The notes below the pieces were generated by a model, which saw only the letters and a list, made by a program, of their open reading frames with translations, was not told the origin of the DNA and ran no database searches. A DNA stretch of 64,000 bases from a virus (Duplodnaviria > Caudoviricetes), in IMG/VR virus record IMGVR_UViG_3300010882_000012. One strand, 5' to 3'. Shown here one piece after another: positions 6,793-62,806 of the stretch; the stretch's first letter is position 1; each line of letters begins with the position of its first letter. The position numbers were made by a program, and so were the translations under genes.

Positions 6793-6807
6793 TAATAGAA
6801 AACTTGC

Positions 6808-6833
6808 AAAATAATCTGGAATAAATAGTAAAA
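6808..6833 (+). promoter_or_regulatory. Putative late promoter AAAATAATCTGGAATAAATAGTAAAA
   Basis: Eight related copies, mostly before structural genes; core resembles T4 late TATAAATA. Confidence 0.8.
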
Positions 6834-6847
6834 AATAGTGTATATCA

Positions 6848-15446: not shown

Positions 15447-15453
15447 GAGTGTC

Positions 15454-15479
15454 AAAATAATTCGGAATAAATAGTGAAA
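15454..15479 (+). promoter_or_regulatory. Putative late promoter
   Basis: AAAATAATTCGGAATAAATAGTGAAA. Confidence 0.75.
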
Positions 15480-15508
15480 GATAGTCAAAACTAAAAAGAT
15501 TTTAGCAT

Positions 15509-35476: not shown

Positions 35477-36129
35477 TGATAGCAATAACACCTCCTGTTT
35501 CAGTCAGAGAGTTAAACCGATACACAATTTGGATGACTCGAAGAAAAATTGAGTATCGAATTTTAGAACATGATGAATTTTTGCAAAAAGATGATGTTTT
35601 AATGTTGTGTGGAGGTTCTGATTTTGGAACTAACAAAGAAAGAGATAGAAGAGAACTTGAATTATTACATCAAGCATTTGAATGGCATATTCCAATTGTA
35701 GGAATATGCAGAGGAATGCAGGTTTGTAATATTGCAATGGGAGGAACAGTAAAGGACCTCAATGAAACAGGTTGTAAAACACATCAAGAAGTTGCAGCAA
35801 CTATTGGAGATTCAGCAACTGATAAAATGAAACAATCTAAATTTCATGAGGTCCATATTATTAAATCATGGGGGCGAGATTCTAATCAAAGATTAGGTTC
35901 TAGAATAACAGTAAATTCAAGACATCATCAAATGATAGATTTGCTAGCACCTAATTTGCAACTTGATGGATACTGTGTTGGTGATGATGTTCCTGAAATT
36001 GCACTTAATAATTCAATTAGATTGGTACAATGGCACCCAGAATTTGATGAAGTCTATGATAGTGATTGTGAAATTTACGTTAGTAATTGGATAAAAGAAA
36101 AAATTAAAGAACAGAATGATAGAAGTTAA
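35476..36129 (+). CDS. Class I glutamine amidotransferase-like / peptidase C26
   Basis: GGSD, GICRGMQ, VNSRHHQ, VQWHPE. Confidence 0.88.
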   Translation: MIAITPPVSVRELNRYTIWMTRRKIEYRILEHDEFLQKDDVLMLCGGSDFGTNKERDRRELELLHQAFEWHIPIVGICRGMQVCNIAMGGTVKDLNETGCKTHQEVAATIGDSATDKMKQSKFHEVHIIKSWGRDSNQRLGSRITVNSRHHQMIDLLAPNLQLDGYCVGDDVPEIALNNSIRLVQWHPEFDEVYDSDCEIYVSNWIKEKIKEQNDRS

Positions 36130-37297
36130 AGAATTCAAGTTTGCTAAACTTAGTGAACAACCAACAATAGAAGAAATTGATAAAGAAATTAAAAGATTAG
36201 GAAAGCTTGAAAGAGACTATCATAATGAAGAACAAGCAATTAAGATTTTTTTGAATTCCATGTATGGTGCCTTAGCTAGCCAATACTTTATGGCAGCTAA
36301 TACTGATATGGCAGAAGCAATTACTTTACAAGGTCAAAATATCATCCAAACATCAGCCACTCTTTTGGATAATTACTTTAAGAATTTCTGGCATAAAGAT
36401 AAGGATCTTCACAAAAAATTAGGAATTACAAAAGTTGCTGAAGTTACTTGTGAAGTAGCCAAATATGGTGATACTGATTCAGTCTATGCTACTCTACAAG
36501 AAGCTTTTTTAGGAACAGACTATCAAAAAGAGCCATATCAATTTGTTCTTGATGTTTACGAATACAGGCTAAAAGATTATCTTCAAAAAGGAATGGAGAA
36601 ACTTGCAGAAAAGTACAATACAAAGAACATCCAGAAATTTGAACTTGAAACAATTTCTCGTTCTATGTTACTCATAGCTAAGAAAAAGTACATCCTTGAT
36701 ATTGCTTGGCAGGCTCCTGATATTTTCTATGGTCCTCAACAAAAGATTAAACCAAAAGGAGTTGAAATTGTACAGTCTTCAACACCGATTTTCTCTCGTA
36801 AAATCCTTAAAGACATCCTTAAAGTTATCTTGACTGAAAAAAAAGATTTGAATGTTAAAGAATTCATTAAACAACTACGAGTGTATAAAGAGAAATTTTT
36901 AACATCTGAAATTAGTGATATTGCTTTACAGGCGGGAATTAATGACTATGCTAAAGGAATCGCAAATGATACTGAAAAATTTGAAGTTAATTCAAGATGT
37001 CCAATTTATGTTAGAGCAGCAGGATATTACAACTATTTGATTAACAATAATCCTAAACTAAAGAAAAAGTACTCTTTGATTAAAACGGGTGATAAAGTAA
37101 AATTCTACTATTCAACAGACCATTTTTGTAATGTTTTTGCTTTTCCGGTTGGTCAGTGGTGTCCAGAAATTGCACCGTCAATTGATTATGATGCTCATTT
37201 TCAAAGAGTATTGTTAGATGCAGTAAACCGATTAATAAAACCATTAGGATTTCCTGGATTTGATTCAGACCTCATTATTTCGAAAAAACTTTTTTAA
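36116..37297 (+). CDS. gp43: Family B DNA polymerase, C-terminal subunit (motifs B and C, thumb)
   Basis: KIFLNSMYG, ITLQGQ, YGDTDS, KKKY, KGVE. Confidence 0.92.
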   Translation: MIEVKEFKFAKLSEQPTIEEIDKEIKRLGKLERDYHNEEQAIKIFLNSMYGALASQYFMAANTDMAEAITLQGQNIIQTSATLLDNYFKNFWHKDKDLHKKLGITKVAEVTCEVAKYGDTDSVYATLQEAFLGTDYQKEPYQFVLDVYEYRLKDYLQKGMEKLAEKYNTKNIQKFELETISRSMLLIAKKKYILDIAWQAPDIFYGPQQKIKPKGVEIVQSSTPIFSRKILKDILKVILTEKKDLNVKEFIKQLRVYKEKFLTSEISDIALQAGINDYAKGIANDTEKFEVNSRCPIYVRAAGYYNYLINNNPKLKKKYSLIKTGDKVKFYYSTDHFCNVFAFPVGQWCPEIAPSIDYDAHFQRVLLDAVNRLIKPLGFPGFDSDLIISKKLF

Positions 37298-37313
37298 AAT
37301 AACAACAATAGTA

Positions 37314-37493
37314 ATGGAAGTTACAAAACATGGATCATGGTATGAGAAAAAAGTTGATAATAAATGCTCTAAATGTGGGTGTGAATTCACAGTAGATGTA
37401 AAAGAACTTACCGTAGTTAATTGTTATCATGACATCATAACATTTTCAATAGACTGTCCGGAATGTGGCAAGAAAATGCTATTCCAATCTTAA
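37314..37493 (+). CDS. Small Zn-ribbon protein (likely start ATG 37314)
   Basis: CSKCGC...CPECG. Confidence 0.6.
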   Translation: MEVTKHGSWYEKKVDNKCSKCGCEFTVDVKELTVVNCYHDIITFSIDCPECGKKMLFQS

Positions 37494-37508
37494 AAATAGT
37501 CAAAATTA

Positions 37509-37814
37509 ATGGCAAAAAAAGAATCATCTCTAAAAAGTGAGATGTCATTTATAGAACTTGATAATTTACTTTCAAAAGTAGATCCAAGAGGCTCAATATC
37601 AACAATTAACACTTTCTCTAAAATAGACGATTTCATAGATACTGGTAACTATCTGTTTAATGCTCAGATATCCGGGAGTTTATTTGGTGGTATACCGAAT
37701 TGTAGAACAGTTGCATTAGCAGGAGAAACTGGCTGTGTAGCTAAGTCTCAAAAAATACGAGTATATAGATTAAAGAGTATATCAAATGGATTCCACAATG
37801 TTATTATTGAATGA
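37509..37814 (+). CDS. uvsX: UvsX/RecA N-terminal fragment fused to 26-aa N-intein
   Basis: IDTGNYLFNAQISGSLFGGIP...AGETG|CVAKSQKIRV; intein Cys codon at 37734. Confidence 0.88.
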   Translation: MAKKESSLKSEMSFIELDNLLSKVDPRGSISTINTFSKIDDFIDTGNYLFNAQISGSLFGGIPNCRTVALAGETGCVAKSQKIRVYRLKSISNGFHNVIIE

Positions 37815-39045
37815 GTTGTTTTTTACTAAAGTACCAAAACTTTCTAGAAAGTACAAACTTTTAGAAAATCCAAGGTCTAAAAAAGAAATGCTAAAAATTT
37901 TACAAAATAGTTACAGTTATTCTAAAAATCCAGTAATTACTATTGTAGAAAATCATTATAATGATTATCTTAAAAAGTTTTTAGAATTTCATGAAAGTAA
38001 AACTAAGGTAAGCAAAGGAATGTGTAATCTTCCACAGCAAATTTTTTCATTCTGGGAAACGCATAATACAAGAATAAACTTTTACATTTGCAGGGGCTAT
38101 ACAGAAGAAGAATCTTTACATTTAAGAGGCATTAGACAATCAACAATGAACAATAATACACAAGAAAAAGTTGAAAAACGTAAAAAGACGATGGAATTAA
38201 AATCTCCGGAAGAACAAAATCGGATTAATAATGCAAAAGGAAATTGTAATAGATGGGAATGGTATTTAGATAAGATTAATTCTATAACTGGTGAAGTTTT
38301 TACAGAATTAGAAGCAAGAGAAAAAGTTAGATTAAAACAACAAAAAGCTACATTAGGATTATGGAAAAAGGTAAAAAATGGTGAAATTGAGTATTATACA
38401 AATTGTAATGTTAATTTTTACATCAAGTATAAAGGATTGAATTATGATGAAGCAGTACAAGAATTAACAAAAAGACAAGAAACGTTTTCATTAGAAGTTT
38501 GTATTGAAAAATATGGTAAAGAAGAAGGTATAAAAAGATGGGAAAGACGTCAGAAAAAATGGCAAGAAACTATGGATACTAAATCTGATGAAGAAAAAAA
38601 GCGTATAAACATTGCTAAAACTAGAAAATTACCAAGATTTTCTAAATCATCGGCAGATCTTTTTGATTTAGTATTAGGAGACGGATTATTTACAAATTAT
38701 GACGTTTATTACAAAGATAAAGAGTACTTTGTTTATGATAATGAAAAAAAGAGGATTTTTTATTATGATTTTGTTATACCAGAATTAAAAGTTTGTATTG
38801 AATATCAAGGTATAACATATCATCCTCATCCTAATTTAACAGAAAATGAGAAACAAAAATGGATAGAACCATATAGTAAGTTAAATTATTGGGAATGTCA
38901 AAAATTTGACAATTATAAAAACAATCTTATAATAACAAAGGGATATGATTTGTTAATAGTATGGGAAACTGATAAAAACAAGTTTGAAACTATCCGTACA
39001 TTTTTAAAAACAAAAAAAGACGAATATGAACGAATTACAAATTAA
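37786..39045 (+). CDS. Free-standing putative homing endonuclease (Vsr-like C-terminal domain) between uvsX halves
   Basis: TFSLEVCIEKYG, YDF...IEYQGITYH...LLIVWE. Confidence 0.8.
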   Translation: MDSTMLLLNELFFTKVPKLSRKYKLLENPRSKKEMLKILQNSYSYSKNPVITIVENHYNDYLKKFLEFHESKTKVSKGMCNLPQQIFSFWETHNTRINFYICRGYTEEESLHLRGIRQSTMNNNTQEKVEKRKKTMELKSPEEQNRINNAKGNCNRWEWYLDKINSITGEVFTELEAREKVRLKQQKATLGLWKKVKNGEIEYYTNCNVNFYIKYKGLNYDEAVQELTKRQETFSLEVCIEKYGKEEGIKRWERRQKKWQETMDTKSDEEKKRINIAKTRKLPRFSKSSADLFDLVLGDGLFTNYDVYYKDKEYFVYDNEKKRIFYYDFVIPELKVCIEYQGITYHPHPNLTENEKQKWIEPYSKLNYWECQKFDNYKNNLIITKGYDLLIVWETDKNKFETIRTFLKTKKDEYERITN

Positions 39046-40537
39046 GAATGAACTACTTTCTTTTATAGAATGGACTGAAGAAAAATTATCAAGAGAGTTA
39101 AAGAATAGGTCATTATTTGAGATTTTTAATGAACATTGTGAAAAATATGCAGAGTATAAAACAGCTAAAGAAATAGTAGATGAATTTCAACATACTAGTT
39201 TTTTAATAGATACACCAGATGGATTTCAAGAAATTGGTGATTTTTATGTTAAGCATAAACGCAATATTCATCATGTGATATTTGAAAATTACCAAATTAA
39301 AGTTTCATCAGATCATCTTCTTGAGACTAAATCTGGATTTAAGCATACTAAAAATCTTAAAAATGGTGATGAAATTTTAACAAAATTAGGATTTATACCA
39401 ATAATTTCAAATGATATTGTTTCATTTGAAGAAGTTTATGATTGGGAAGTTTTACACAAAAATCACAGATATTGGTGCGATGGAGTTTCTTCGCATAATA
39501 CAGGTAAAACGTTTTTGGCGCTTAATCTTTGTAGAGGTGCACAAAAGAAAGGATATCACATAATTTACTGTGATACAGAGGCAGCAGTAGATGAGAAACA
39601 ATTCAGAAAATTTGGATTAGATCCCGAAAAAGTTAGGTATCAGCCTGTTAATACACCAGCAGAGTTTAAGTTCTTTGTTTCTAACCTCTTAAAACAATTG
39701 AAAGATGCTCGTGCGGCAGGTAAGCAAGTTCCTAAAATTATGATGGTACTCGACTCACTTGGAAATCTTGCTACATCTAAAGAACGTAATGATGCTTTAG
39801 AAGGTAAAGAAAAAAGAGATATGACAAAACAACAAGAATTACGTTCTCTTTTTCGTATTATTACAATGGATTTAGCAGAGGCAAAAATTCCATTTGTGTT
39901 AACTAATCATAGTTATGCAGCGGTTGGTGCCTATGTTCCTACCGATGTTTTTGCAGGTGGCGGCGGTGCACTTTACAATTCTTCATTCATTGCTTTTCTT
40001 TACAAAGCGCAACTTAAAGAGGATAAGCCAAAAGATGATGAGAATAGTGATGTAGATATGAAAGCAACAGGAATTGTTGTACGGTCAAAACCTCACAAAT
40101 CAAGATTTGCAAAACCAATTCAGATTAGATTTCACATCTCATTCTTTAAAGGCATGAATCCCTATGTTGGTCTTGAAGATTTCATTTCTTGGAAAAATTG
40201 TGGAATTGAAAAAGGTAACTTGGTTTCAAAATCTGAGTATGAGAAACTAACTCCAGGAGATAAAGCAAAAGCAGATGTTTTTGAGTTTAACGGAAAAACC
40301 ATGTACTTTGTACCAAAAGCAAGTGCAATGCGTTATATCGTAAAACACTTGGGAGATGGAGTTAAAGCAAATCAACTTTTTACACCGGAAGTTTTCACAG
40401 AAGAAGCTCTTAGAGAACTTGATGAAAAAGTTATTAAACCTACTTTCATGTTGCCAGATGTTAATGATATCTACGAAATTGATGATTATGTTGATGAAGA
40501 GTTAGAAGAAACAGAAGAAAATTTGATAGAAGATTAA
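39026..40537 (+). CDS. uvsX: 158-aa C-intein fused to UvsX/RecA C-terminal fragment
   Basis: IDTPDG...SSDH...VYDWEV...SSHN|TGKT, then DTEAA, LDSLGNL, TNH, GGGG. Confidence 0.9.
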   Translation: MNELQIKNELLSFIEWTEEKLSRELKNRSLFEIFNEHCEKYAEYKTAKEIVDEFQHTSFLIDTPDGFQEIGDFYVKHKRNIHHVIFENYQIKVSSDHLLETKSGFKHTKNLKNGDEILTKLGFIPIISNDIVSFEEVYDWEVLHKNHRYWCDGVSSHNTGKTFLALNLCRGAQKKGYHIIYCDTEAAVDEKQFRKFGLDPEKVRYQPVNTPAEFKFFVSNLLKQLKDARAAGKQVPKIMMVLDSLGNLATSKERNDALEGKEKRDMTKQQELRSLFRIITMDLAEAKIPFVLTNHSYAAVGAYVPTDVFAGGGGALYNSSFIAFLYKAQLKEDKPKDDENSDVDMKATGIVVRSKPHKSRFAKPIQIRFHISFFKGMNPYVGLEDFISWKNCGIEKGNLVSKSEYEKLTPGDKAKADVFEFNGKTMYFVPKASAMRYIVKHLGDGVKANQLFTPEVFTEEALRELDEKVIKPTFMLPDVNDIYEIDDYVDEELEETEENLIED

Positions 40538-40764
40538 TGACACGAAATATCACAATAATCGTAGATAAAGTTTGGTTGAATTATCATGAAGATGATGTTT
40601 TAAGTTTTCAATATCCAATAGAATGGACTTTAGAAGAAAAAGAAAGCTGGAAAGAAAGAAATGATGATTTAATTTTAATGTTTCAAAATACCGCCAAAAA
40701 TGCTATGGAAAAAATGAAGGAAGAAAAAATTTTTGATGTAGATGGAACTGAAATTAAATCGTAG
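40537..40764 (+). CDS. Hypothetical protein
   Basis: Coupled ORF. Confidence 0.55.
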   Translation: MTRNITIIVDKVWLNYHEDDVLSFQYPIEWTLEEKESWKERNDDLILMFQNTAKNAMEKMKEEKIFDVDGTEIKS

Positions 40765-41077
40765 TAAGTTAAAACTGAAACACTTTCTTAATGTGCAAAA
40801 AGAATGCAAAAATTATCCGACTGATGAAGATTATCTTTACGAATTAATTAGTGCACTTGAAGAAAATGATATGTTGTATGAACCATTTACATCAACTTTC
40901 TCAAAACGTAATGTCAAAAGTTTTACCAAATCTCTACCAGAAGATGATGAAGAAAAACCATTAGTTAAACATCTTGAAAAATTAAAGAGTTTAACAGAAG
41001 AAGGAATTTTAGAAATGATAGAAGAAGGTGGAGTTAATAAATCAAAATTTAAACTAAAAACACATCCCTGGTTATGA
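40742..41077 (+). CDS. Hypothetical protein
   Basis: Coupled ORF. Confidence 0.6.
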   Translation: MELKLNRSKLKLKHFLNVQKECKNYPTDEDYLYELISALEENDMLYEPFTSTFSKRNVKSFTKSLPEDDEEKPLVKHLEKLKSLTEEGILEMIEEGGVNKSKFKLKTHPWL

Positions 41078-41313
41078 TAGCAATACCTGTTCCATTAGCA
41101 ATACTTGTCTTTTTTATTGTACTTTTTGCTATAATGATAATTGTAGCAAGAAATTGGGAAGCAAGAGATTTTAATAATGGCTTTTGTCCTCATTGTGGTA
41201 GAAAATTAAGATACTTTGACTCTGACAGTCAAGGTGGTAGAGGATACCGTTGTGATGCTTGCGAGTACACAACTTGGTGTTCATATGCAGTAGACAAAAA
41301 TTACGAAAATTAA
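41074..41313 (+). CDS. Membrane-anchored Zn-ribbon protein
   Basis: N-terminal hydrophobic helix; CPHC...DSQGGRGYRCDAC. Confidence 0.65.
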   Translation: MIAIPVPLAILVFFIVLFAIMIIVARNWEARDFNNGFCPHCGRKLRYFDSDSQGGRGYRCDACEYTTWCSYAVDKNYEN

Positions 41314-41315
41314 GA

Positions 41316-42047
41316 ATGATACCAAATCACTTAGAGAAGATCATTTTTCACAATATCCTTGAAAATAAAGAGTACATTAGGGTAACAAAAGCAGAATTTT
41401 TTGATTCTCCAAATTATTCTGATTTGTTCAAATGTGCCGCCGGATTTATTGAGAAGTACAATCAAACTCCTACAAAGGAACAAATGGTTGAACTTGCAAA
41501 AATTGGAGGTCTTGAAAAGATTAATCGAGATTTCATTGAAATTGTATTCAATTGTGACAAATCAGCATATGATAAAGAATGGTTGCAAGAATCAACAGAA
41601 GCTTGGATTGAATCTAAAAAACTTGAAAAAGCTGCAAATCAATTAGTTACCTATCTTAAAACTACAGATATCTCAATAGAAAATGTTAAGAATGTAGTGG
41701 AAACTTCAAGAGATATTATCATGAATGGTACTAATCTTGATTTAAAATTTGATGAAGGTCTTGACTTTTTTAATCCTGAAAGCCATAGACAACCATTAGC
41801 AGATACTTTTAGTTCTGGATTTCCATATGTTGATTTAGTTCTTGGAGGTGGTTGGTATTCAAAAGCTTTGTTTGTACTTTGCGGACAACAGAAAGTTGGT
41901 AAGTGTTCAAAAGGTACAACAAAAATTACTATTAGAAACAAAAAAACAGGGGAAATTAAGAAAATTTCATTGAAAAAATTTCATGAGTTAACTAAAAAAT
42001 TAAATCCTACTTTTTGTAGACCAACATTCCAAAATAATCTGGAATAA
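41316..42047 (+). CDS. gp41: Replicative helicase gp41 N-terminal fragment fused to 47-aa N-intein (likely start ATG 41316)
   Basis: SGFPYVDLVLGGG...GQQKVGK|CSKGTTKITIRNKKTGE; intein Cys codon at 41904. Confidence 0.88.
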   Translation: MIPNHLEKIIFHNILENKEYIRVTKAEFFDSPNYSDLFKCAAGFIEKYNQTPTKEQMVELAKIGGLEKINRDFIEIVFNCDKSAYDKEWLQESTEAWIESKKLEKAANQLVTYLKTTDISIENVKNVVETSRDIIMNGTNLDLKFDEGLDFFNPESHRQPLADTFSSGFPYVDLVLGGGWYSKALFVLCGQQKVGKCSKGTTKITIRNKKTGEIKKISLKKFHELTKKLNPTFCRPTFQNNLE

Positions 42048-42056
42048 ATAGTAAAA
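42031..42056 (+). promoter_or_regulatory. Putative late promoter for the endonuclease; overlaps stop codon of helicase-N
   Basis: AAAATAATCTGGAATAAATAGTAAAA. Confidence 0.8.
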
Positions 42057-42057
42057 G

Positions 42058-43215
42058 ATGTTAACTATGAAAAGTACAAAAAGATTTAACCGATATTCAA
42101 TAGAAGATCAAATGGAACGTTTTAATTTATCAAAAGAACAAGCAGAAGAAAAAGTTAAAAAAATTAAACATCAAAATTCTGAATCTTCTAAAAACAAGAT
42201 GAATGTTGAATGGCAAATGGAACGTTTTAATTTATCAAAAGAACAAGCAGAAGAAAAAATTAAAAGAATTAGTAATGCATACTCAACATATCAAAAAACA
42301 ATAAATGTTGAATGGCAAATGGAACGTTTTAATTTATCAAAAGAACAGGCAGAAGAAAAAATTAAAAGAATTAAAAATGAAAAATCTTCAATTTTATCTA
42401 AATTAAAGAATAATGACTATGAAAAATTTTTAACAATTAATCCTAATAATAAAGAGCATTGGATTAAAAAAGGATTTTCATTAGAAGATGCAACAATAAA
42501 AGCACGACAATTTACTAAAGAAAATTGTCAAAATATGCGTAATACCTACGAACAAATTAGAGAAGAAAATCCCGGTATTCATAAAAATTACAATTCAGCT
42601 TGTTTAGAATATTGGCAAAATCAAGGATATACTATAGAAGAATCAATTGAATTAAGAAGTAAACGTCAATCAACATTTTCTTTAGAAATTTGTGTTGAGA
42701 AGTATGGAACTGAAATTGGATTTCAAATTTGGAAAGAAAGAAATGAAAATTGGTCAATAAAAATTGAAGAAAAATATCAAAATGGCGAATTTTCTAGGAT
42801 ACCAAAAAATCCACTATCGACATCTTTTTCTAATAAAGAGATTAATTTAATTAAAGAATTAGTTCAAGTTTTAAAACTTGATGAAAAACAATACTATTCA
42901 ATAATAAATGGAAAACAATTTGGTAGATGGAGCACTGAATTAAAAAGAGGATTTTCTTTTGATTTTGTTTTAAAAGAAAAATTTAAAATTATTGAATTTT
43001 TTGGTGATTATTGGCATTGTAATCCAAGGTTTTATGATAGGAATTATTTTCACAAAAAAATGAAATGTTTAGCAGAAGAAAAATGGGAACAAGATAAAAT
43101 TAAGGAAGATTTTATTAAAAAAGAAGGATTTGAAGTTTTTGTTGTTTGGGAGTATGATTATGATACAGATAAAGAAACTATTTTAAATAATTGCGTAAAA
43201 TTTTTAAAATCATAA
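42058..43215 (+). CDS. Free-standing putative homing endonuclease (Vsr-like) between helicase halves
   Basis: Three QMERFNLSKEQAEEK repeats; TFSLEICVEKYG; FDF...IIEFFGDYWH...VFVVWE. Confidence 0.82.
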   Translation: MLTMKSTKRFNRYSIEDQMERFNLSKEQAEEKVKKIKHQNSESSKNKMNVEWQMERFNLSKEQAEEKIKRISNAYSTYQKTINVEWQMERFNLSKEQAEEKIKRIKNEKSSILSKLKNNDYEKFLTINPNNKEHWIKKGFSLEDATIKARQFTKENCQNMRNTYEQIREENPGIHKNYNSACLEYWQNQGYTIEESIELRSKRQSTFSLEICVEKYGTEIGFQIWKERNENWSIKIEEKYQNGEFSRIPKNPLSTSFSNKEINLIKELVQVLKLDEKQYYSIINGKQFGRWSTELKRGFSFDFVLKEKFKIIEFFGDYWHCNPRFYDRNYFHKKMKCLAEEKWEQDKIKEDFIKKEGFEVFVVWEYDYDTDKETILNNCVKFLKS

Positions 43216-43219
43216 TAAA

Positions 43220-44296
43220 ATGAAATTATCAGATATTACAGAAAAAAAATTTGAAGAATTTTTTGAAATTTCGGATTGGGAAATTGAAACAGATACAGGA
43301 TGGGAAGATATTAAAGGAATTGGTAAAACTATTCCATATCAAGTTTGGTTTTTAAAAACTTGGGGATTTGAATTAGAATGTGCAGATAATCATATCGTTT
43401 TTGATGAACAATTTAACGAACTTTACGTTTATGAATTAAAAGTTGGTGATAAAATAATGACTGAATTTGGACCTCAAGAAGTATTGAAAATTGAAAAAAC
43501 CAATGAAATTATTGAGATGTATGATGTTCAAGTTAGTTCGGATAATCATCGTTATTACACAAATGGAATTCTTAGTCATAATTCAATTTTTTTAGCAAAT
43601 TTGGCAGCAAATGCAGTTAAATTAGGATATAATTCAGCTGTAGTTTCTTTAGAAATGGCAGATCGAAAAGTTGTTAAAAGACTTGGTGCTAATCTTCTTA
43701 ATGTTACAATGGGAGAGTATGCACAGATTGCAGAAGATCAAGATTTAATTCGTAAGAAACTTGCAACTATTGGAATGGAAAATTTCAAACAACCGGGGCA
43801 GCTTTTTGTTAAAGAATTTCCAACTTCTGCTGCAAGTATTAAGGATGTTGAAAGATGGTTACTAAAAATGGAACAGATGAAAGGAATTAAATTTAAAACC
43901 GTTTTTATTGACTATATCAACATCTTAGCAAACTGGAGAAATCCAAATTCAGAAAATACCTACATGAAGGTTAAACAAATTGCAGAAGATATGAGAGCTA
44001 TGGCAATTAGAAACAATTGGGCAATAATTAGCTTAACACAAACAAACAGAGGAGCTTTTAATACTTCAAGTATGAGCATAACTGATATTGCAGAATCTTC
44101 TGGTCTTGGTGCTACTGTAGATGCAATGTTTGGTATTGTACAAGATGAGATAATGCATGCTAATAATGAGTACTTTTTGCAGACACTTTTGAATAGAGAT
44201 GAAGGTTACAAAAACTCGCGCAAACGGTTAACTATTAACTATTCACACATGCGCTTAGAAGAAACTTTAGACGATATTATTACAGACGTCTACTAA
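43220..44296 (+). CDS. gp41: 121-aa C-intein fused to gp41 helicase C-terminal fragment
   Basis: ETDTGW...CADNH...MYDVQV...YYTNGILSHN|SIFLAN, then SLEM, IDYIN, TQTNR, AES. Confidence 0.9.
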   Translation: MKLSDITEKKFEEFFEISDWEIETDTGWEDIKGIGKTIPYQVWFLKTWGFELECADNHIVFDEQFNELYVYELKVGDKIMTEFGPQEVLKIEKTNEIIEMYDVQVSSDNHRYYTNGILSHNSIFLANLAANAVKLGYNSAVVSLEMADRKVVKRLGANLLNVTMGEYAQIAEDQDLIRKKLATIGMENFKQPGQLFVKEFPTSAASIKDVERWLLKMEQMKGIKFKTVFIDYINILANWRNPNSENTYMKVKQIAEDMRAMAIRNNWAIISLTQTNRGAFNTSSMSITDIAESSGLGATVDAMFGIVQDEIMHANNEYFLQTLLNRDEGYKNSRKRLTINYSHMRLEETLDDIITDVY

Positions 44297-44310
44297 AAAC
44301 AGAATAGAGA

Positions 44311-44820
44311 ATGAAACTATTTGATGAAGATAATCCATTAGATGAAATAGAACCAAGTTTTGAAAACATGGATGAACAAACTGAAATAGAGAATAATAAC
44401 AATAATGATGGAGAGTTTGAATTTCAATTGTTTGGAACTTTTGCAGTAGATGAAAATTGGATGACCAAAAATTATTCCGAATTAAGATACTTGCATGAAA
44501 CTTTTGAAATGGAAAAATTGAAAAACAATCTCTATGATATTTTTGTAGAATCAAGATTTTACGAAAAGTACAAAGATTATAGTTCTAAAGTAACTAAGCA
44601 AGATTTGTTAGATATCTTTTTACACTTTTACGAAAATATTGAAGATGGAGACAGGTATTCAGAAATGGACAAATTTTGTGAGATTGCAGACTTCTTTGGA
44701 ATTAATTACGATTTACTTTACAAAGAGATACCAATTACAATAAAGCAAAAATTAATAGTTGATATGGATGAAAAGTATCAAATGTTAAATGGTGGTACTA
44801 AAGTTAAAAAATTGTTTTAA
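44311..44820 (+). CDS. Hypothetical protein, possible gp33-like late transcription co-activator
   Basis: C-terminal helices resemble gp33; ends KKLF. Confidence 0.4.
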   Translation: MKLFDEDNPLDEIEPSFENMDEQTEIENNNNNDGEFEFQLFGTFAVDENWMTKNYSELRYLHETFEMEKLKNNLYDIFVESRFYEKYKDYSSKVTKQDLLDIFLHFYENIEDGDRYSEMDKFCEIADFFGINYDLLYKEIPITIKQKLIVDMDEKYQMLNGGTKVKKLF

Positions 44821-49511: not shown

Positions 49512-49532
49512 TTGAAAAGCGGGAAAACTCTC

Positions 49533-49558
49533 AAAATAATCTGGAATAAATAGTAAAA
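49533..49558 (+). promoter_or_regulatory. Putative late promoter
   Basis: AAAATAATCTGGAATAAATAGTAAAA. Confidence 0.8.
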
Positions 49559-49610
49559 GATATTGGGCTGGTTTTAGATTCAATCAGTCAATTTAAAATA
49601 ATTGAAGATA

Positions 49611-55938: not shown

Positions 55939-55964
55939 AAAGAGGATTTAAATCCTCTTTTTTT
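55939..55964. terminator. Bidirectional terminator between convergent genes
   Basis: AAAGAGGATTTAAATCCTCTTT palindrome with T run. Confidence 0.8.
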
Positions 55965-57987
55965 ATTTAATTAAAATCACAAATTCTTTATTTTCTCCAA
56001 AGTGACTTTTATTCTTTATCTCTTCAACTATGAAGTCTTTATACTTTTCTGTTTTATCAACTACAAAAAGATAACTTTCACACTTAAAGTTCTTTAAACA
56101 TATATCAATCCACTCATCACAACTTAAATCCTTTTGGCCTTCAAACCAAATCTCTTTCATATTATAAGGAGGGCAAGTAAATAAGCATTCATAAGTTCCT
56201 TCACATTCAAAAACATCTTTAACTTCTAAAAAAACATTTTCTATATCAAAATACTTTACAATTTCTTTAGATTCATTAATTACTATAGAATTTATATCTT
56301 GACCTATATATCTTTTACTTAAAGCAACTGTTCCTAACATTCTCCCTGAATATCCACTAAAAGGATCAAAGATTTCCCGATATTGATCCAGATACTTTTC
56401 TATTAAAGTTCTTGCTAAAGAAGGTTGAAATATAGTTACTTTCGGGGCTATTTTTGAAATATTAAATCCTTCTAAAATTCTGGATGGATCTATATTATTT
56501 TTATAAATAAATCTATTTTTTATAGCTCTAAGTAATAAATCATCTTGAAACCATGCTTCATAAGGTGAAAATTTTGCAACTTTAGATTTCCAAATAGAAT
56601 AATGAAAATGTCTTATAATTTTATCTCCTATTTGTGATTTTAATAAAAAATATTTATAATCTTTTAGTTGTTGGAAACTTGTTTTCAATATTTCATTTGA
56701 ATAAATTGGATATGGAAATTCTATAGATCTACACCAATTAAAAAGATTTTGAATATACTCATCATAATTCATTTCTAAAACATTAAAAAGTTCTTTAATT
56801 CCTTCTTCAAATTGTGATTCTAAAATTACTATAAATTTTACATTTTTTGGAATAAATAATATTCTATTTATATCAGGTTCTATATTTACTTTTTTACCAT
56901 TTTGATCTCCATAATATCCATGATAGTATAATCCATCACATTCAACCAAACAAATTAATTCAGTTTTTTCAATATCTTTAAATATTGCAAAATCAAAAGT
57001 TTTTGTGCAATTATCTCCTTGTATTGTATATAAATGTTCAAAAATTATACCCCTATTTGTTAAAACTTCTATCATTTTCTTTTCTAATTTTGAAAATTTA
57101 GAAGATTTTACTATTTTTGAACGAATTTCTTTTAAACAAAGTAAATATTTAACACCATATTTTTCTAAATTAGATTGAATAATTTTATCCTGAATAATAT
57201 TTGATTGAAATGGCCATTTGGTACCATAACGTTCTAAATTTGTTATATTTGTTTTATCCTGAATTTCTTTACATTTCATTGGATTATCCGTACCATATTT
57301 ATCAAAAAAGGTTTGTTTGCGTTTTTCTTGAAATTGTATAACATTACTAGGATTTTCAACACCATATTTTTTTAAATTTGTAGCAATTACTTTTTCTCGA
57401 ATTTCTTTAGATTGTCCCGGATTTTCAACACCATAATTTTGTTTTAATGTTTTTTTTTGTTTTTCTTGACAAATACTAGATTGAAATGGAAAATCTACAC
57501 CTAATTTATTTCTTATTGATTGTCTTACAGATTCTAATTGATATGCGTTTGTAACACCATGCCGTTCTATTAAAGTATTAATTATTTTTTCTCGAATTTC
57601 TTTAGATTGCCCCGGATTTTCAACACCATAATTTTTTAATAATGTCTGTTTTCCTTTCTCCTGAATTTCTTTACATTTCATTGGATTATCAACACCATAT
57701 TTATTAATAAAAGTTTGTTTTGCTTTTGCTTTTTGGATTATTTTAATACATTCTTTTTTTCCACATGTTTTATAATAATCTTTTATATAAAATTTTAATA
57801 ATTTATTACAATTTAAACATCTTTTTGGTTCTATTAAATTATTAAGTAATAAATAAATTTTTTCTTGATATGTTTCTATATTAGGAAATAAATTATCAAT
57901 TTCTTCTTTATTTTCTAAGTAAAGTTTTTCTTTTTTTGTCCAATGAAAATTAAAAAAATTATTTAATTTTTCTTTTAGTTCTTCCAT
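55963..57987 (-). CDS. Fusion protein: YGV(E/D)NP repeats, Vsr-like endonuclease, SAM-dependent DNA methyltransferase
   Basis: Repeats YGVENPGQSKEIREK; FDFAI...VECDGLYYHG; FDPFSGYSGR, YIGQDIN, FTCPPY. Confidence 0.78.
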   Translation of the reverse strand: MEELKEKLNNFFNFHWTKKEKLYLENKEEIDNLFPNIETYQEKIYLLLNNLIEPKRCLNCNKLLKFYIKDYYKTCGKKECIKIIQKAKAKQTFINKYGVDNPMKCKEIQEKGKQTLLKNYGVENPGQSKEIREKIINTLIERHGVTNAYQLESVRQSIRNKLGVDFPFQSSICQEKQKKTLKQNYGVENPGQSKEIREKVIATNLKKYGVENPSNVIQFQEKRKQTFFDKYGTDNPMKCKEIQDKTNITNLERYGTKWPFQSNIIQDKIIQSNLEKYGVKYLLCLKEIRSKIVKSSKFSKLEKKMIEVLTNRGIIFEHLYTIQGDNCTKTFDFAIFKDIEKTELICLVECDGLYYHGYYGDQNGKKVNIEPDINRILFIPKNVKFIVILESQFEEGIKELFNVLEMNYDEYIQNLFNWCRSIEFPYPIYSNEILKTSFQQLKDYKYFLLKSQIGDKIIRHFHYSIWKSKVAKFSPYEAWFQDDLLLRAIKNRFIYKNNIDPSRILEGFNISKIAPKVTIFQPSLARTLIEKYLDQYREIFDPFSGYSGRMLGTVALSKRYIGQDINSIVINESKEIVKYFDIENVFLEVKDVFECEGTYECLFTCPPYNMKEIWFEGQKDLSCDEWIDICLKNFKCESYLFVVDKTEKYKDFIVEEIKNKSHFGENKEFVILIK

Positions 57988-62727: not shown

Positions 62728-62806
62728 TTACTATTTATTCCAGATTATTTTAGAATATCTAATAATTTTTTAGCCTAACATCTTTTACTATTTATTCCAA
62801 TATTTT
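62728..62806 (-). promoter_or_regulatory. Tandem putative late promoters upstream of sheath
   Basis: Reverse-complement AAAATAATCTGGAATAAATAGTAA (62728-62751) and AAAATATTGGAATAAATAGTAAAA (62783-62806). Confidence 0.78.

Follow-up and report, generated by a model that had tools for sequence, protein, structure and literature searches.

The fractured helicase gene

The window analysed here comprises the first 64 kb (64,000 nucleotides) of a 146-kb IMG/VR virus record, IMGVR_UViG_3300010882_000012 (Caudoviricetes), which has a G+C content of about 30% and T4-like replication and tail genes. On its plus strand, positions 41316-44296 hold three open reading frames (ORFs) in three different frames with clean starts and stops; the outer two encode the halves of a gp41/DnaB-like helicase, each of which carries one part of an intein at its inner end (IntN upstream, IntC downstream), and the middle one encodes an endonuclease. 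The parts of the locus are as follows.

41316-42047, plus strand: helicase N-half ORF, 243 residues, TAA stop
41316..41903, plus strand: helicase N-extein (gp41/DnaB-like), residues 1-196, the last of them the Walker-A Gly-Lys; phrog_19 positions 163-366; the ATG agrees with the starts of homologues
41904..42044, plus strand: IntN, 47 residues (Cys plus 46), stop codon at 42045-42047
42058..43215, plus strand: endonuclease ORF between the helicase halves, 385 residues, phrog_22677
43220-44296, plus strand: helicase C-half ORF, 358 residues
43220..43582, plus strand: IntC, 121 residues, with blocks B (A-D-x-H), F (M-Y-D) and G (G-I-L-S-H-N), recognised by PDB sequence matches and invariant catalytic columns
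43583..44296, plus strand: helicase C-extein, 237 residues plus stop, the first residue being the Walker-A Ser (Ser122 of the ORF); PF03796, phrog_19

The helicase is thus distributed over adjacent ORFs whose exteins abut without loss or gain. When the two proteins were placed on phrog_19, the profile of DnaB-like helicases, residues 6-196 of the N-part covered positions 163-366 and residues 122-349 of the C-part covered positions 367-581, which makes the exteins directly contiguous between 366 and 367. Joined at this point, they give a protein of 433 residues with the normal length of a helicase and a restored P-loop. The insertion site lies in the Walker-A P-loop between Gly-Lys and Ser, directly ahead of the Ser, which corresponds to insertion point b of DnaB. 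The Pfam domain DnaB_C (PF03796) matches the C-half from profile position 34 onward (E=1.7e-14), and the Pfam search by itself recognised neither the helicase N half nor the endonuclease. These results agree with the original prediction, which was made from the letters alone and had described GQQKVGK followed by Cys, 46 further residues and a stop (present at 41316-42047, with 196 residues up to the Walker-A Gly-Lys) and a C-intein of 121 residues ending in SHN before a Ser that restores Walker A (residues 1-121 end in SHN, and Ser122 opens the C-extein). Its contention that the split is no artefact is likewise borne out by the identical gene calls on independent ENA and Logan assemblies, where genes of 243, 382 and 358 residues were called and where the same N and C helicase proteins occur on several contigs of separate samples.

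The reality of the junction can also be read from relatives that lack the insertion. Seventy IMG/VR loci encoding relatives of the C-extein were retrieved, 69 of which extend to the junction. The helicase is uninterrupted between GK and Ser or Thr in 62 of these 69, with 196-206 residues ahead of GK (223 in two loci), and the remaining 7 are interrupted at the same place, with the endonuclease present, degraded or deleted. Among GenBank phages, a megablast search with the locus returned no match and tblastn returned distant helicases only (<50% identity, the nearest being those of Lak phages and one uncultured phage), and the fractured allele of this window was found by neither search in any GenBank phage. 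An apparent match with 94% coverage in the gp41 of S-SSM7 was discarded, as it turned out to be a normal-length gene without an intein.

The split intein and its viral family

Compared with the sequences of solved structures in the PDB, IntC is closest to VidaL (6vgv, E=9e-11), followed by CatC (6dsl, 4e-7) and gp41-1 (6qaz, 1e-5), and PDB sequence searches with the IntN peptides gave no similarity to solved structures. When the window is aligned with six related loci, which share about 50% identity across the intein, Cys1 and the R-N-K-x-T turn of IntN are invariant, as are the block-B A-D-x-H, the block-F M-Y-D and the terminal G-I-L-S-H-N of IntC, and with them all four catalytic residues of IntC (His58, Asp102, His120 and Asn121). 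Position +1 is Ser or Thr in all aligned relatives and Ser in the window. The nucleophiles are those of class 1, since the Cys comes right after the Walker-A Lys and the Ser right after His-Asn. Judged by these columns, the intein carries the full predicted class-1 catalytic set. The ratio of nonsynonymous to synonymous substitution rates (dN/dS) of IntC amounted to 0.08-0.42 over 21 pairs with dS <1, and to 0.40 between the window and its nearest relative, which indicates purifying selection, weaker than that on the exteins (0.01-0.15). The computed net charges of +9 for IntN and -15 for IntC confirm that the former is basic and the latter acidic, as had been claimed.

The position of the break was located by comparison with unsplit members of the same intein family, which were found at the Walker-A GK of three terminase loci. 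The features concerned are listed below.

41904-41999, plus strand: conserved core of IntN, 32 residues, comprising Cys1, strands 1-2 and the first helix; equivalent to residues 1-32 of the contiguous members
42000-42044, plus strand: IntN tail, 15 residues, not conserved; aligns to the spacer DNA behind the stop codon of the nearest relative, locus L004
L118:4851-5369, L129:4869-5345 and L143:4884-5342: contiguous terminase mini-inteins of the same family, unsplit

Against the contiguous terminase members, the IntN core and IntC of the window tile one complete mini-intein, and the start of IntC falls in a variable linker just ahead of a conserved K-K-F motif. An AlphaFold model of the L143 intein (predicted local distance difference test score, pLDDT, 82.5; predicted template modelling score, pTM, 0.75) contains strands at residues 7-12 and 18-22, a helix at 23-29, a low-confidence loop at 30-42 and a next strand that begins at K-K-F, and it matches VidaL, Cat, gp41-1 and many other inteins with a probability of 1.0. 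The HINT fold is indicated both by the homology of IntC to solved inteins and by this model of a contiguous relative. Because the alignment and the L143 model alike place the break after helix 1, it is assigned, on modelled structure, to the loop behind the first helix of the intein, the atypical position termed 'S2' that is used by AceL-TerL and GOS-TerL (TerL, terminase large subunit). The split accordingly lies N-terminal to block B, and blocks B, F and G all reside in IntC. The idea that the K-K-F leader of IntC is a duplicate of the IntN helix was rejected, for both elements occur one after the other in the contiguous members, and strand 3 of the model begins at K-K-F.

The short tail of IntN has a straightforward candidate origin. 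In L004, a stop codon stands immediately after the IntN core, and the tail of the window aligns to the spacer of L004, so that the 15 residues are most simply viewed as a probable read-through after loss of the stop. The total length of IntN exceeds the published range of 15-37 residues only because of this non-conserved tail.

The helicase intein belongs to a sizeable viral family. A profile search of IMG/VR with IntC found 98 viral contigs, and among the best 80, which were kept, 34 are gp41-type helicases, while terminase large subunits and several AAA+/Clp-like or clamp-loader-like ATPases make up the remainder. The intein part opens its ORF in nearly all of these best 80 contigs, and the upstream ORF, wherever it was recognised, follows one common pattern, namely a Walker-A GK followed by an IntN of 27-43 residues. 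Most other terminase loci found are of the split form, and split and contiguous states coexist in viral metagenomes.

The endonuclease gene and its expression signals

The gene between the halves encodes 385 residues from the ATG at 42058 or 382 residues from the ATG at 42067; the shorter product is more likely, as suggested by the gene callers, which use ATG 42067, and by the remnant in L004, whose start aligns there. Three further features within or next to this gene are relevant.

42008..42076, plus strand: predicted RNA hairpin with its 3' arm over the second ATG (42067) of the endonuclease; minimum free energy -13.8 kcal/mol, z = -2.95 against shuffled sequences
42030..42059, plus strand: promoter-like 30-mer with the T4-late-like core AATAAATA; covers the IntN stop and ends at the first ATG of the endonuclease ORF
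42086..42386, plus strand: three tandem repeats of 102-105 nucleotides, encoding modules of about 34 residues; 73-100% identity, helical in the AlphaFold model

The motifs D...E-x-x-G-D-x-W-H...W-E are conserved in 22 homologues of the endonuclease, with D302, E313, G316 and H320 invariant and W364-E365 nearly invariant. Profile matches are weak (E 0.04-2) and comprise Vsr, I-Bth0305I (E about 1) and a DUF559 protein, and a PDB sequence search with the endonuclease itself gave no match. In its AlphaFold (AF2) model (pLDDT 83.6), the N-terminal region is helical and is followed by an alpha/beta domain at the C-terminus, for which the best Foldseek hits were Vsr (1cw0) and the catalytic domain of I-Bth0305I (3r3p), the latter with a probability of 1.0 and a template modelling score of 0.71 normalised by target. 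The endonuclease claimed to lie between the halves is accordingly found at 42058-43215 with a Vsr/I-Bth0305I-like fold, and by this model the gene is a predicted free-standing Vsr-like homing endonuclease of the I-Bth0305I type. Its N-terminal helical repeats presumably form the DNA-binding region. The family phrog_22677 also takes in the ORF inside a fractured UvsX gene, which is treated below. A group I intron as carrier of the endonuclease was dismissed: no Rfam match was obtained in 37300-44400, and both flanks of the gene are in-frame parts of an intein.

Of the related loci, L005/L006, L021 and L034 have an intact endonuclease gene, L004 retains short remnants of it and L017 and L059 lack it, and the split intein is kept in every one of them whatever the state of the endonuclease. 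As far as the sequences tell, intact, decayed and lost endonucleases are the stages expected of a homing cycle around an intein that is no longer simply lost. An extra ORF of 171 residues with a signal-peptide-like N-terminus (L005:5020-5535) stands between the endonuclease and IntC in L005/L006, from which it follows that the gap inside a split intein can gather unrelated cargo.

The promoter-like 30-mer recurs elsewhere in the window, exactly at 49532-49561, with one mismatch at 6807-6836 and with three mismatches at 15453-15482, when no copy was expected by chance. Its core of 11 nucleotides, G-G-A-A-T-A-A-A-T-A-G, has 8 copies in the 146-kb record, none of them inside a long ORF and 6 of the 8 just upstream of an ORF; two tandem copies precede the gene of a tail sheath protein of 1300 residues (phrog_34521, E=3e-103) on the minus strand, at about 62732-62742 and 62789-62799, and the 30-mer at 49532 comes after a gp15-like tail gene. 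The TAA within the element of the helicase locus is the stop codon of IntN. The promoter reading is strengthened by these copies, those of the 30-mer ahead of other genes and those of the core ahead of the tail sheath gene: the 30-mer is a resident promoter-type signal of the phage, and plausibly, by its sequence context, a late one. The late promoter of the original prediction therefore survives in modified form, as an extended and putatively late element that recurs upstream of ORFs, the tail sheath gene included; the plain T4 octamer fares less well, because TATAAATA is not enriched in the 64-kb window (6 found vs 9.6 expected). A looser octamer, W-A-T-A-W-A-W-A, lies at most 45 nucleotides upstream of 16 of 22 endonuclease genes of the family vs 49 of 147 other ORFs (Fisher p=0.0007), in agreement with the fractured genes of Dassa et al. 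(PMC2677866).

The hairpin at 42008-42076 pairs sequence upstream of the promoter-like element with the ATG at 42067 and resembles the translational control of other phage endonucleases. Comparable hairpins are inconsistent across family members, and its standing as an element is tentative. At the other end of the gene, the ATG of the C-half lies 4 nucleotides past the endonuclease stop, and the endonuclease stop overlaps the IntC start or lies at most 10 nucleotides from it in 14 of the 22 cassettes of the family that were examined; from this spacing, co-transcription of the endonuclease with the helicase C-half is likely, perhaps with translational coupling.

Interpretation, precedents and neighbouring fractured genes

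The only detectable replicative helicase of this phage is very probably a fractured gene, in which a class-1 intein of the P-loop is broken by a Vsr-like homing endonuclease gene. Two products would be made, the N-extein of 196 residues with the basic IntN and the acidic IntC of 121 residues with the C-extein of 237 residues. The intein halves would then associate to complete the HINT fold, after which Cys1, the block-B His, the block-F Asp, the terminal His-Asn and Ser+1 would carry out protein trans-splicing to release the 433-residue helicase with an intact P-loop. The endonuclease would cut intein-less helicase alleles of co-infecting phages and thereby spread the cassette, and it would be co-transcribed with the C-half, late infection included. 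The dependence of the helicase on a split intein, as originally proposed, is supported in silico by the invariant catalytic residues, the exact junction, the empty-site homologues and the dN/dS of IntC below 1.

A non-covalent assembly of the halves, mediated by the intein fragments or by the helicase fold, that functions without splicing, like the intein-less split NrdA of phage Aeh1, is very unlikely. Fractured genes without an intein whose products function by assembly are on record (PMC3045599; an SbcD-like case in PMC2677866), but here the break falls inside the ATP-binding P-loop, where an unspliced intein of 168 residues would occupy the active site, and assembly alone would not need the splicing residues, all of which are invariant and under purifying selection. 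It is likewise very unlikely that the fractured copy is a decaying relic and that the helicase comes from an unsampled part of the genome or from the host: neither the exteins nor the intein halves are damaged, all of them are conserved, and many diverged phages retain the arrangement with dN/dS well below 1. What speaks for a relic is that the record is only about 56% complete by the CheckV estimate and that a longer contig of 181 kb exists. An intact helicase elsewhere beside a decaying copy, an outcome that the original prediction had itself raised, was not encountered, the DnaB_C/phrog_19 gene count being one in the 146-kb record, at that completeness, and the dN/dS of IntC lying below 1. 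An assembly or sequencing artefact, with a split gene simulated by a frameshift or a chimeric contig, has next to no probability in spite of the metagenomic origin of the contig: separate ENA and Logan samples yield contigs with identical N and C proteins, the architecture is shared by more than 30 diverged loci, and the three ORFs start and stop cleanly in three frames.

Several points nevertheless weigh against the trans-spliced, late-transcribed helicase. The 15-residue tail of IntN is absent from relatives, the block-B Thr is replaced by Ala in IntC (though the fast-splicing VidaL has the same change), and the completeness of about 56% limits the finding of a single helicase. The octamer at 42043-42050 matches TATAAATA, the T4 late consensus, at 7 of 8 positions, and the label 'late' derives only from the position upstream of the tail sheath gene and the one adjacent to the gp15-like gene. 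Finally, the trans-splicing of the helicase, like homing and the timing of late transcription, is what we infer from sequence.

A further proposal takes the cassette to be wired into the transcription programme of the phage, trans-splicing then being a timing device rather than a neutral scar, and we regard it as unlikely. According to it, the stop of IntN would lie inside a late-type promoter and the start of the endonuclease in a hairpin that could be formed only by read-through transcripts; with the C-half coupled to the endonuclease ORF, the supply of ligatable N and C parts, and hence of active helicase, would differ between early and late infection.

The layout of the fractured helicase has close precedents in the fractured genes of Dassa et al. 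2009 (gp41-1 to gp41-9, NrdJ-1, IMPDH-1 and Terminase; PMC2677866), which likewise have a late-promoter-like octamer and a hairpin upstream of the endonuclease and an endonuclease stop that adjoins the downstream half; a basic IntN and an acidic IntC are also found in gp41-1 and gp41-8 (PMC2677866). In contrast with the P-loop site of the window, gp41-1 to gp41-7 are inserted at position 356 of the P-SSM2 gp41 (PMC2677866), and they are canonically split, with an IntN of 88-105 and an IntC of 33-54 residues, whereas the window intein is split after its first helix. Only the Terminase locus of that study has a long IntC (122 residues; PMC2677866).

With AceL-TerL, GOS-TerL and Cat (6dsl), the helicase intein shares the split after the first helix ('S2', PMC13014065), a short IntN and an IntC of about 105-120 residues with blocks B, F and G, and split as well as contiguous TerL loci fall in its family; these inteins differ in that their host protein is the terminase large subunit instead of a helicase and that their published IntN has 25-37 residues vs 32 plus the 15-residue tail in the window, identity being moderate. 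VidaL (6vgv/6vgw), the best solved match of the helicase IntC, is an atypically split and fast-splicing intein (PMC13014065) that also has the block-B Ala, but it is split earlier, after strand 2, with an IntN of 16 residues. Four atypically split inteins have been characterised, namely AceL-TerL (IntN of 25 residues), GOS-TerL (37), VidaL (16) and PolB16 (15) (PMC13014065), and one review calls natural ones rare.

The P-loop site is the one known as insertion point b from bacterial DnaB inteins (PMC4760082), for instance the mycobacterial DnaBi1 (PMC4760082, PMC6195587). Those inteins are contiguous and cis-splicing, often with an in-frame endonuclease domain, and reside in cellular genomes, whereas the helicase intein of the window is split, has its endonuclease as a separate gene and is found in a phage. 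I-Bth0305I and the Vsr-like EDxHD nucleases (PMC3239194; 3r3p) share with the endonuclease of the window the fold of the C-terminal nuclease domain and its conserved acidic and His motifs, and the N-terminal DNA-binding region of I-Bth0305I is modular as well. The gene of I-Bth0305I lies in a group I intron of recA, whereas that of the window is free-standing inside a split intein; the sequence similarity is marginal (profile E about 1), and the activity of the window enzyme is predicted from the modelled fold.

Current understanding is unchanged by this locus, as there are published examples of its layout (Dassa 2009), of its P-loop site (DnaB point b) and of its atypical split (AceL/GOS TerL, VidaL). 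The value of the locus is that of a clean natural case in which an essential replication enzyme would exist only after protein trans-splicing, in a phage whose UvsX gene, a few kilobases upstream, bears another atypically split intein that is unrelated to the first. For intein biology, the few natural inteins with short N fragments, which are valued for protein ligation, are joined by a member from a helicase P-loop and by a sizeable viral family that has been little exploited. For phage biology, the locus illustrates the life cycle of a homing endonuclease around a locked-in split intein, with the gene intact, decayed or deleted in relatives, and a selfish cassette that sits directly behind one of the phage's own promoter elements. 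Lake Vida inteins named 'T4Lh-1' and 'UvsX-2' were reportedly described by Neugebauer et al. in 2017.

The UvsX gene is fractured at 37509-40537. Its N ORF ends in the Walker-A loop with a Cys and 25 further residues; the endonuclease ORF at 37786-39045 (419 residues, Vsr-like) overlaps both neighbours, and the C ORF opens with an IntC of 158 residues that ends in HN and is followed by T-G-K-T. This IntC is closest to VidaL (E=5e-13), the construct of which has the same kind of C-extein (S-G-K). The S-G-K behind the intein in the VidaL crystal construct corresponds to the site of the UvsX intein, where HN precedes TGK, and not to that of the helicase. The helicase and UvsX inteins of the window are 25% identical in IntC and without detectable similarity in IntN. 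It was thus correct to call the helicase intein the 'second' atypically split one, UvsX upstream being fractured by a different atypically split intein.

Other selfish or split genes were observed in the window and its relatives. A 674-residue ORF at 55963-57987 on the minus strand, beside the tail sheath gene, matches homing-endonuclease PHROGs (phrog_3339, E=1e-31), which brings the endonuclease-type selfish genes of the genome to at least three. At 36116-37297, an ORF of 393 residues encodes the C-terminal part of a family-B DNA polymerase (Y-G-D-T-D-S) without intein ends, and the genes upstream of it are unrelated. Among the relatives, UvsX is split at a different site in L004 (863-3975) and L005 (1149-2806), in the canonical manner with a long IntN and an IntC of about 40 residues, and its halves are separated by a transposase-like ORF of 414 residues in L004 and by nothing in L005. 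In L059 (1239-3279), a Vsr-like endonuclease gene is followed directly by the C-part of a DNA polymerase, which opens with a short IntC of the canonical kind.

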